Part shown: piece by piece, positions 10,462-13,669 of the stretch
Layout: every line of letters begins with the position of its first letter
Position numbering within the stretch: position 1 is the stretch's first letter
Program-made: the position numbers and the translations under genes
Notes under the pieces: model-generated
Database searches by the model: none
What the model was told of the DNA's origin: nothing
The model's input: only the letters and a program-made list of their open reading frames with translations
Source of the DNA: Dictyostelium discoideum
Lineage: Eukaryota
Direction of reading: 5' to 3'
DNA: 64,000 nt
Assembly: GCA_000004695.1 (NCBI GenBank)
Contig: CM000151.3
Span: forward strand, 1 to 64,000

Positions 10462-13400
10462 ATGGGAGTACCAAAATTATGGGAATTATTACAACAATCT
10501 GGTACATCAATTGATATAAATGCATTGGAAGGTAAAACCTTAGCTATTGATGCAAGTATTTGGATTCATACATTCATTAGAACCTTAAAGAATGAAAAAG
10601 GTGATCCTATGACCAATGCACCAATATTAGGTTTCTTTAGACGTATTTGTAAATTATTATCATTACGTGTTAAACCAATCTTTGTATTTGATGGTGGAGT
10701 ACCATATCTAAAGAGAAGAACTATTGAAGAGAGAAGAAAAAGACGTGAACGTGCTGAACAAAATATTGAAAAAAATCAAAGAAGATTACTTTTAATTAAT
10801 ACAATTAAAAAACAATTAAAAGATGGTACTTTATCTATTAAAAATAATGAAATAACAAAATCAACAACCACCAACACCACTACTCCTTCAAAAAATAATA
10901 AAAATAAAAATAAAAATTTTGATTCAGATTTTGATAATTCAATTTTTGATGAATTAATTGAACAAGATATAAATAATGATGATGACTACGAATTCGAATT
11001 AGATAGTGATTTAGAAATTATTCCAGATACTGATCAAATTCAAAATGAAAATAATAATAATAATAATAATAATAATAATAATAATAATAATAATAATAAT
11101 AATAATAATAATAATAATAATAATAATAATAATAATAATAATAATAATAATAATAATAATAATATAATTACAATTAATGATGATGATGATGATAATAATA
11201 GTGATAATGGTATAGGATCAGATGAAGAAAATGAAATAAATAAAATTATCAAAGAAGATTCATTAACAAGTTTTATGCAATTGAATGGAATTACAAAGGA
11301 TACAATTAATACTAGTGAATTTAAAGAATTACCAGAGGAATTACAACTTGAAATTATTGGTATTATTAGGAATGAGAAATTGATTGAGGATAAGATTTCA
11401 TTGATTGCACAACAAAAAGAAAATCAAAATCAAAATAAAACTACAATTGATTTCTCAAAACGTCAATTGATTAGTATTTTAGATAAGGGTATGTTAAATA
11501 GAAAAGCTGATGAACTTTTAAAGAGAATTGATCAACAAAATCAAGGAGTAAAAATGACAAGTCAAAATACAAGTATTATTTTTAATAAAACTCCAACTAA
11601 ACAACAAGGTGATATTTCAACTATGATTAAAACACCACCCGATAATAAATCACCAATGTCAAGTTTATCATCAAAGATTGAATCTGGTATTAGAATTTCA
11701 AATATTCCAAACTTTGTAAAACCATCACCAAAAAAACAATCACCTCAACCAAACCTATCTTTATTTAATAATAGTGTCTATGAAATACAAGATACAAAAT
11801 ATCAAATTAAATCAAAATTATCTGATCATCAAATGAAGTTTAATTCTTTAATTAATAGAGAATCCCCAATTAAAACAACAACTACTACAACTACAACAAC
11901 ACCAACTAAAACAAAAGAAAACTTTAAAAAATTTTCATATCAAGATGATTTCAATGTAAATGATAACGATTTAGATTTCAATGATAATAATAATAATAAT
12001 AATAATAATGAAGATGATTATAGTGATATATTTGTTGAACCAAAATCAAAAGATCAATCTTTGAATAAAATTTTATTTACGAAAAAAAATAATTCAAATA
12101 AAGTAGAAAATAATGAAAACAATGATAATAGTAAAATTATTGAAATTATAAATAAAAGGAATACTCCATTCTCAATTGAAGAAGATAGTGATCATGATGA
12201 TGAACATGATAAAGGTATCACTAAAAGTTTAAATAGTTCAAATGAAAATGAAACAATTGAACAATTAAGAATAATTAGAGGTTTTATGGGTGAACTTGAT
12301 AAATTCAATAAAACAAATAATAATAATAAAAATAATAATAAAAATAATAATAAAAATAATAAAAATAATAAAAATAATAATAATAATAATAATAATAATA
12401 ATAATAATAATAATAATAATAATAATAATAATAATAATAATAACAATAATAATAATGATGACGATGAAGATAGTATGGGACCAAGAGATATTGATATTAT
12501 TGAAGAAGAAGAAGAAGAAGATTCAATTAAAGGGACAAAAAATACTGACGAGGCTATCAATTTGAATGTTAATAATTTAAAAGAAAGAAAGGTATTATTT
12601 AATGAAAATGAAAAGAAGATGAATGATATTATTTCAAATAAATCAGTTAATAGGAAAAAGGATACTAGTTTTATTGTTGAAGATCCAAATGATAACAATA
12701 AAGAATCAATAATGGTTGTTGATTATGATGATGATGGTGATGATATTGAATTTATTGAAAATTATGATAAAATTAAAAGTAAACAACAAAAGGAAGATTA
12801 TGATTTTGGTGGTGTTGAAAATGAAAAATTAATTAATCAACTATTAGAAGAGGATTTAAGGGAACAAAAGGAGTTTAGTAAAATTCAATCAAATAATCAA
12901 AAATATTATACTGAAATAGAAAATGAAAGATTAATAAGAAAAATTTTGGAAGAGGATCAAAAAAGAAAAAATAATGAAAAAATTGTAAAAGAAAATAAAA
13001 ATGAAAAAGAAGATGAGAATGAAAAAGTAAGTAATGAAAATCAAGATTATGAATTTGGTATTGAGAATCAAAACTTAATAAATTCATTATTAAAGGAAGA
13101 TTTAGTTGAAAAAGAAATAGAAAATGAAAATGAAAACGAAAATGAAAATGAAAATGAAAATGAAAATGAAAATGAAAATGAAAATGAAAATGAAAATGAA
13201 AATGAAAATGAAAATGAAAATGAAAATGAAAAAGCAAGTAATGAAGATCAAGATTATGAATTTGGTATTGAGAATCAAAACTTAATAAATTCATTATTAA
13301 AGGATGATATAGTTGAAAAAGAAAATGAAAAAGAAAAAGAAAAAGAAAAAGAAAAAGAAAAAGAAAAAGAAAAAGTAGGTATTTGTTTTAGCTAGTAATG

Positions 13401-13569
13401 AAGATCAAGATTATGAATTTGGCATTGAGAACCAGAGTTTGATAAATTCACTATTAGAGGATGATATAGTTGAAAAAGAGGTCACCGATAAAGAAAAAAA
13501 GAAAGAAATTCCATTCTTTAATGATGATGATATATTTAATAATAACCATACCACTGATAATAATCAAAT
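10462..13569 (+). CDS. XPG/Rad2 (ERCC5)-like protein, N-domain plus long acidic low-complexity spacer; 3' end truncated by assembly gap, nuclease I-domain not present in window
   Basis: N-terminus MGVPKLWELLQQSGTSIDINALEGKTLAIDASIWIHTF...RVKPIFVFDGGVPYLKRRTIEERR aligns residue-for-residue with the XPG N-domain. Spacer has poly-N, (EN)n and (EK)n runs and 5 copies of a ~25-aa motif [DE]Y[ED]FG[IV]EN[QE].LIN.LL.[ED]D. The frame breaks at ~13375-13395 (a single T indel in GTTTT restores it); the open frame then runs to the N-gap. Confidence 0.75.
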
Positions 13570-13669
13570 NNNNNNNNNNNNNNNNNNNNNNNNNNNNNNN
13601 NNNNNNNNNNNNNNNNNNNNNNNNNNNNNNNNNNNNNNNNNNNNNNNNNNNNNNNNNNNNNNNNNNNNN
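13570..13669. other. assembly gap (100 N) within or after the XPG-like gene
   Basis: Literal n run. Confidence 0.99.

Follow-up and report, generated by a model that had tools for sequence, protein, structure and literature searches.

The XPG/Rad2-like gene that begins at position 10462 of the stretch analysed here, 64,000 nucleotides of Dictyostelium discoideum AX4 chromosome 2 (contig CM000151.3, positions 1 to 64,000; referred to as the window), is almost certainly a single-copy, full-length XPG/ERCC5/Rad2 orthologue, which seems to lack its second nuclease half only because of how the reference was assembled. The gene is of an already known kind, and its apparent loss of the nuclease I-domain is an artefact of a gap in the reference, to which a short, most likely erroneous patch next to this gap is added. 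The evidence comes from the window itself and from five gap-free loci of D. discoideum and related species, the features of which are collected in Table 1.

Table 1. Features of the XPG locus in the window and XPG genes in the gap-free loci used for comparison
Feature	Sequence	Position	Strand	Remarks
XPG N-terminal nuclease domain, aa 1-97	Window	10462..10752	+	Pfam XPG_N, E = 1.3e-26
Sequenced spacer (R-domain), ~935 aa	Window	10753..13569	+	Acidic, Asn-rich, with (AAT)n/(GAAAAT)n/(GAAAAA)n tracts
Acidic-aromatic segment DDDYEFELDSDLEIIPD	Window	10978..11028	+	Related segments in Acytostelium P0076, JGI fragment P0001 and D. purpureum
Conserved spacer block: UBM-like motif SEFKELPEELQLEIIGIIRNEK, then IDFSKRQLISILDKGMLNRK	Window	11314..11505	+	tblastn match to Acytostelium XPG aa 228-291
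Five-copy acidic motif array, (D/E)Y(D/E)FG-x-EN-x-x-LI-x-x-LL-x-(E/D)D	Window	12787..13480	+	(GAAAAT)n and (GAAAAA)n between copies
Motif copies	Window	12787-12870, 12889-12972, 13033-13116, 13240-13323, 13397-13480	+	
Frame break, TAG 13393-13395 and +1 shift	Window	13375..13395	+	Seen by comparison with the near-identical L006
Acidic-aromatic segment IPFFNDDDIF	Window	13508..13537	+	Conserved in all dictyostelid XPGs examined
100-N assembly gap	Window	13570..13669	.	Equals L006 8074-9742, 1,669 bp, in the near-identical assembly
Intergenic DNA, 3' of the hidden XPG stop and 5' of the next gene (ATG 13927)	Window	13670..13926	+	Aligns from L006 9743
XPG gene, near-identical D. discoideum	L006	4964-9400		One uninterrupted ORF, 1,478 aa; 5 motif copies, as in AX4
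XPG gene, wild D. discoideum isolate	L001			Single ORF, 1,453 aa; 4 motif copies
XPG gene, wild D. discoideum isolate	L003			Called as one gene, 1,453 aa; 4 motif copies
XPG gene, D. dimigraforme	L004			Called as one gene, 1,279 aa, XPG_N and XPG_I; about 3 motif copies
XPG gene, D. purpureum	L002	3658-7410		Uninterrupted ORF, 1,250 aa, I-domain included; 1 motif copy

The XPG gene as deposited

As written, the XPG open reading frame extends from an ATG at 10462 to a TAG at 13393-13395 and encodes 977 aa (window ORF 10462-13395). XPG_N is the sole Pfam match of this ORF and XPG_I is absent, and the original prediction that the first ~100 aa form an XPG N-domain is confirmed by this profile match. 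The N-domain can be aligned to residues 2-116 of the Rad2 core (4q0r), with the AIDAS and FVFDGG motifs both identical, and its acidic residues D30 (in AIDAS) and D77 (in FVFDGG) are the conserved aspartate pair of XPG_N, numbered D30 and D77 in human and yeast. A six-frame tblastn search of the 64-kb window with the full-length XPG of Acytostelium subglobosum (P0076, 1,213 aa), which contains a plainly recognisable I-domain, detected no I-domain; the only matches were to the N-domain (10462-11031) and to one spacer segment (11305-11517). The earlier observation that the I-domain is missing is therefore valid for the sequence as given, since none is encoded within the 64 kb according to both tblastn and Pfam. 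The same search ruled out a displacement of the I-domain to another part of the window through misassembly.

The region as a whole has a G+C content of 20.6% and contains long (AAT)n, (GAAAAT)n and (GAAAAA)n tracts. Upstream of XPG lies a gene for an LSG1-like GTPase (8325-10250, Pfam MMR_HSR1), and other ORFs of the window correspond to genes of AX4 chromosome 2, with exact matches to DDB_G0271354 and DDB_G0294296 and a near match to DDB_G0271350. An exact look-up of the 977-aa ORF and of the neighbouring 641-aa ORF in a gene-position index gave no match.

Sequence hidden by the assembly gap

The window contains two runs of 100 N, at 1-100 and 13570-13669, and a single N at 52513. For comparison, DNA was fetched around the orthologues of the LSG1-like GTPase gene and of two other window ORFs. 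One of the loci obtained in this way, L006, belongs to a gap-free assembly of a near-identical D. discoideum (GCA_054883475.1, JBTAPE010000001.1:28869-50362). Ten long-read Dictyostelium genomes have been presented in a 2025 paper, the laboratory strain AX2-214 being among them (PMC12745789), and its near-identity to AX4 suggests that GCA_054883475.1 is probably the AX2-214 assembly of that study.

The sequences on both sides of the second gap can be aligned to L006 with 99.6-99.8% identity and in the same order and orientation, window 5481-13569 corresponding to L006 1-8073 and window 13670-24139 to L006 9743-20194, which leaves an interval of 1,669 bp in L006. As both flanks are collinear with L006, the 100-N placeholder can be equated with this interval. 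Coding sequence accounts for 1,327 nt of the hidden bases, and the remaining 342 nt are intergenic, lie 3' of the gene and end in poly-T. The coding part supplies the end of the spacer with its (GAAAAT)~30 array, the pre-I-domain helix, the I-domain followed by the H2TH region, and the C-terminal tail as far as the stop codon, so that one of the two possibilities raised in the original prediction, namely that more than 1 kb with the I-domain and the C-terminus is concealed in the gap, is borne out in L006. With the stop codon located at L006 9398-9400, the sequence that follows the gap in the window begins 343 nt downstream of it and ahead of the next ATG, and had thus been correctly described as intergenic.

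The positions at which the AX4 contigs end also appear to account for the gap. The left contig, obtained by Sanger sequencing, stops 10 nt short of a 179-bp (GAAAAT)~30 array (L006 8084-8262) and the right contig starts inside a poly-T tract. With simple repeats at both ends, failure of a shotgun assembly is to be expected there, and 100 N have come to stand for 1.67 kb that include the whole I-domain and C-terminus. From the collinearity with L006, which is another assembly, we infer the presence of these 1.67 kb in AX4 as well; a change specific to AX4 may formally lie inside the gap, since the filling sequence comes from elsewhere. That the gap hides something different, such as a transposon insertion or a strain-specific rearrangement disrupting the gene, could be argued from the other gap, at the start of the window, and the retroelement-like ORFs a few kb upstream, and a 100-N placeholder is uninformative on the true size of a gap. 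Against this stand the collinearity and shared orientation of both flanks with a gap-free locus, their ending exactly at the simple-sequence tracts that explain the assembly failure, and a near-identical strain with nothing extra at this place, and such a disruption appears extremely improbable.

Full-length XPG genes in gap-free loci

The I-domain is encoded in the same ORF as the N-domain in L006, in the wild isolates L001 and L003, in D. dimigraforme (L004) and in D. purpureum (L002), and in all gap-free loci XPG is found directly downstream of the LSG1-like GTPase gene. In the L006 protein, Pfam recognises XPG_N at aa 1-97 (E = 2e-26) and XPG_I at aa 1155-1238 (E = 2.3e-21), with a spacer of ~1,050 aa between aa 97 and aa 1155. 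The other possibility of the original prediction, a protein that consists of the N-domain only, is contradicted by these loci, all five of which (5/5) combine N-domain, spacer and I-domain in one ORF.

When the N-domain was used as the query of a word-indexed homology search, the matches were all short fragments, among them an 88-aa "partial" protein of D. purpureum (P0002). Considered as a precedent for an N-domain-only protein, this model was rejected as an annotation artefact, given that its locus has a 1,250-aa ORF. A search of the literature on Dictyostelium XPG found nothing specific.

The frame break next to the gap

The reading frame had originally been described as reaching the gap, with no mention of a frame break at 13375-13395. 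This description has to be corrected, as the ORF as written is broken by the TAG at 13393-13395. Beyond this codon the spacer can be read up to 13569 only in the +1 frame, which places the fifth motif copy outside the frame of the other four. At 13375-13393 the window has a 19-nt patch, GTAGGTATTTGTTTTAGCT, in the place of which L006 has GAAAAAGAAAAAGAAAAAGCA, a plain continuation of (GAAAAA)n. All 11 substitutions found in the 8,089 nt aligned to L006 are located inside this patch, where ten A-to-T changes and one A-to-G change are accompanied by a 2-nt deletion within the (GAAAAA)n tract. Outside the patch, the only differences between the left contig and L006 are two poly-A lengths, and the sequenced spacer is collinear and substitution-free. 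The patch is situated less than 200 nt from the contig end, and past it the +1 frame stays open up to 13569. Such a cluster of substitutions, situated in a simple repeat close to where a contig ends, points to a poor read and not to mutation, and the patch is most likely a sequencing error of the reference. A 13-nt intron, GTATTTGTTTTAG, which would restore the frame, was also considered and was rejected as too short for spliceosomal splicing; moreover, L006 shows plain (GAAAAA)n at this position.

The stop codon and the frameshift could also be genuine, in which case AX4 would truly encode a truncated, N-domain-only XPG or a pseudogene, with the I-domain lost or untranslated. The deposited reference does have the TAG and the shift of frame, and protein searches did not retrieve an AX4 protein model of the XPG gene, even with a frame-corrected 1,030-aa query, for which zero D. 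discoideum proteins were returned from the protein collection. The missing model is nonetheless weak and is not counted as evidence, since the collection is also devoid of the intact 1,453-aa and 1,478-aa models. Furthermore, the pattern of 11 substitutions and a 2-nt deletion within 19 nt is that of a base-calling error, the remaining 8.1 kb are substitution-free with respect to L006, the correct frame is open from the patch to the gap, and the ORF is intact in 5/5 gap-free relatives. A true truncation is therefore highly improbable, and an error in the reference is the preferred reading of the frame break.

Family membership and predicted function

With regard to structures in the PDB, the L006 protein is closest to the Rad2 core 4q0r (E = 9.3e-77), followed by the human XPG cores 6tux, 6tur and 6vbh (~1e-60). 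The matches fall in two separate stretches, which correspond to the two halves of the split nuclease. FEN1 matches at about E = 1e-30, and FEN1, GEN1 and EXO1 are all far below Rad2/XPG. Because of these best matches and of the ~1,000-aa spacer, the gene is assigned to the XPG subfamily and not to FEN1, EXO1 or GEN1. The catalytic motifs are kept relative to Rad2, both in the N half (AIDAS, FVFDGG) and in the I half (GEAESQCA, TEDSD, LLGSDYT), and the segment immediately preceding the I-domain can be aligned to residues 734-817 of human XPG.

The AX4 gene would accordingly be expected, once the gap is filled and the stop and frameshift at 13375-13395 are read as a low-quality patch near a contig end, to encode a protein of ~1,478 aa in which the N-domain is followed by ~1,050 aa of spacer, by the I-domain together with its H2TH region and, at the C-terminus, by a basic tail. 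The two nuclease regions, N and I, would fold into one active site of the FEN superfamily, and the long disordered spacer would tether the enzyme to TFIIH. By homology, the protein is predicted to act in nucleotide excision repair (NER), as the structure-specific endonuclease responsible for the 3' incision.

Conserved segments and the acidic array of the spacer

Several segments of the spacer appear to be conserved beyond D. discoideum. In the block with the UBM-like motif, the Pfam profile UBM (PF14377), taken here as a profile match around the central Leu-Pro, recognises the segments of Acytostelium (E = 9e-6) and Heterostelium (E = 4e-5). The D. discoideum segment SEFKELPEELQLEII aligns to this UBM stretch and has no Pfam match even at E <= 10. 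An FxDxDIF-type segment is present in all dictyostelids examined. By their sequence, DDDYEFELDSDLEII, the repeat array and FFNDDDIF are candidate segments for binding to the PH domain of TFIIH p62/Tfb1. Three acidic regions in the spacer of human XPG bind the p62 PH domain, one of them being FIEV (residues 654-657), the counterpart of which in Rad2 is the p62/Tfb1-PH-binding motif FEDV (PMC12873601). In a phmmer alignment, the Dictyostelium region from aa 1038 (FFNDDDIF) aligns to human XPG from residue 662, and FFNDDDIF is for this reason the more likely counterpart, and a candidate equivalent, of human FIEV and yeast FEDV.

All five copies of the acidic motif that had been noticed in the spacer were located, between 12787 and 13480. 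Part of the array consists of a 207-bp tandem duplication with 89% matches, and one extra copy in AX4 is the product of this duplication, which is of recent date. At least one copy is kept across the group-4 Dictyostelium species compared, the best conserved parts being the last motif copy and the IPFFNDDDIF segment that follows it. No copies are recognisable in the XPG proteins of Heterostelium and Acytostelium, and a search for a known family (UIM, UBM and others) gave no Pfam match beyond noise at E <= 10. A weak resemblance between the motif and the pre-I-domain helix (IESEKIQSDLQLES) was observed, from which no duplication is claimed.

The DYEFG-ENxxLIxxLL-xED units might have a function as a multivalent docking module, with the PH domain of TFIIH p62 as one possible partner, instead of being a neutral low-complexity expansion. 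In favour of such a role, every D. discoideum isolate, D. dimigraforme and D. purpureum have retained at least one copy followed by FFNDDDIF, whereas the intervening EN/EK tracts vary freely. Moreover, the units are acidic and aromatic, like the p62/Tfb1-PH-binding segments of XPG and Rad2, and human XPG uses three acidic regions of this type (PMC12873601). Nevertheless, the number of copies differs between D. discoideum isolates (5 versus 4) and is lower in D. dimigraforme (about 3) and D. purpureum (1), one AX4 copy stems from the recent duplication, the motif has neither a Pfam match nor a recognisable counterpart in Heterostelium or Acytostelium, and the single FFNDDDIF segment is a better match to the FIEV/FEDV type. 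A docking function of the units thus seems rather unlikely. The fuller proposal, in which the spacer array of group-4 Dictyostelium would offer multivalent docking to p62-PH or another partner and differences in repeat number within a species would modulate the assembly of the NER machinery, is more doubtful still. With a copy number that varies even within one species, neutral repeat expansion appears to fit the array at least as well as function does.

Consequences for annotation

The biological weight of the locus is small, as the apparent N-domain-only XPG comes down to an unsequenced gap in the AX4 reference and a short, probably erroneous patch. Its consequences lie mainly in curation: the near-identical long-read assembly offers the 1,669 bp needed to close the gap in AX4 chromosome 2, the frameshift at 13375-13393 needs correcting, and the 88-aa "partial" model of D. 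purpureum should be superseded by the 1,250-aa ORF. The acidic array that varies between strains is a minor curiosity, which could possibly serve as a probe of XPG-TFIIH docking in a genetically tractable amoeba.

Comparison with known relatives

Human XPG (ERCC5) and S. cerevisiae Rad2 have the same N-domain, long acidic disordered spacer, I-domain with H2TH and basic C-terminal tail as the Dictyostelium protein, and share with it all catalytic carboxylate motifs. The likeness appears to extend to the spacer, which carries a putative UBM-like LP motif and acidic-aromatic segments. The Dictyostelium spacer is longer, with ~1,050 aa compared with ~640 aa in human XPG, and in D. discoideum, unlike in human XPG and Rad2, it is full of simple repeats (Asn, Glu-Asn and Glu-Lys) of the kind that characterises this species. 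It also differs from both in that a motif of 25-28 aa forms a lineage-specific array with 1-5 copies. Furthermore, the Dictyostelium sequence shows no evident canonical PIP box, the only candidate being the PIP-like KFGMDNFV.

Among the dictyostelids, the 'xeroderma pigmentosum group G family protein' of Heterostelium album PN500 (P0223, 1,515 aa) and the XPG of Acytostelium subglobosum have the same domain order. Their N-domains are 50-64% identical, and the UBM-like block, the FxDxDIF segment and the pre-I-domain segment are conserved, whereas the DYEFG-ENxxLIxxLL repeat array is absent from both. FEN1, EXO1 and GEN1 share the XPG_N and XPG_I catalytic fold with Dictyostelium XPG and differ from it in that their N and I regions are separated only by a short helical arch.

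Frame break in the AX4 reference sequence of XPG, a probable error

Compared with the near-identical, gap-free D. discoideum locus L006 (GCA_054883475.1), the AX4 reference carries at window positions 13375-13393 a 19-nt patch, GTAGGTATTTGTTTTAGCT, in place of (GAAAAA)3GCA, and it is this patch that brings both a stop codon and a frameshift into the XPG gene. Since all 11 substitutions found between the two assemblies over 8.1 kb fall within it, the patch is probably an error of the AX4 reference.

Surroundings of the XPG gene

The features identified elsewhere in the window are listed below.

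Features of the window outside the XPG gene
Feature	Position	Strand	Remark
Transposon-like ORF	356-1609	-	multi-copy
Transposon-like ORF	2782-4464	-	multi-copy
LSG1-like large-subunit GTPase	8325-10250	+	directly upstream of XPG
ORF with ATG7_N and ThiF domains	20345-22027	-	main exon of ATG7 orthologue
ORF	40824-41609	+	first half of Pfam Phospholipase B profile
ORF	41733-42647	+	second half of Pfam Phospholipase B profile

Another 100-N gap lies at the start of the window, and after it come multi-copy ORFs of transposon-like character (window 1-8000). One of them falls in a cluster of 37 near-identical proteins from D. discoideum and D. citrinum; a second is of the C2H2 type (DDB_G0294296). 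Chromo and integrase domain genes are present in the counterpart of this region in L006 and in L005, a further locus used for comparison. The order LSG1-like GTPase followed by XPG is common to D. discoideum isolates, D. dimigraforme and D. purpureum. The GTPase ORF in the window encodes 641 aa, compared with 661-674 aa in the models of other assemblies, which suggests a short upstream exon. The ATG7 orthologue is modelled at 707 aa in L006, and the two phospholipase B ORFs are presumably exons of a single phospholipase B-like gene. Additionally, a lone N at 52513, between ORFs 51145-52476 and 52559-53815, may mark a further low-quality spot in the reference.

Repeats of the XPG spacer

The conserved motif copies of the spacer are separated by arrays of the hexanucleotide types (GAAAAT)n and (GAAAAA)n, whose products are the EN and EK runs and whose length is unequal among all assemblies compared (window 13107-13375; L006 8084-8262). 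In D. purpureum, the XPG ORF is unbroken and encodes 1,250 aa with both N and I domains (L002, GL870995.1, 3658-7410), whereas the public model DICPUDRAFT_30018, an 88-aa 'partial', spans 3658-3921 only. The spacer of this ORF holds, at aa ~640-790, a duplicated unit of its own, F-L-D/E-N-D-E-Y-K-D-V/F-R-G-G-F-x-I-E-D-D-E-E-P, which is absent from the D. discoideum spacer; the expansion of repeats in the spacer has thus been independent from one species to another.
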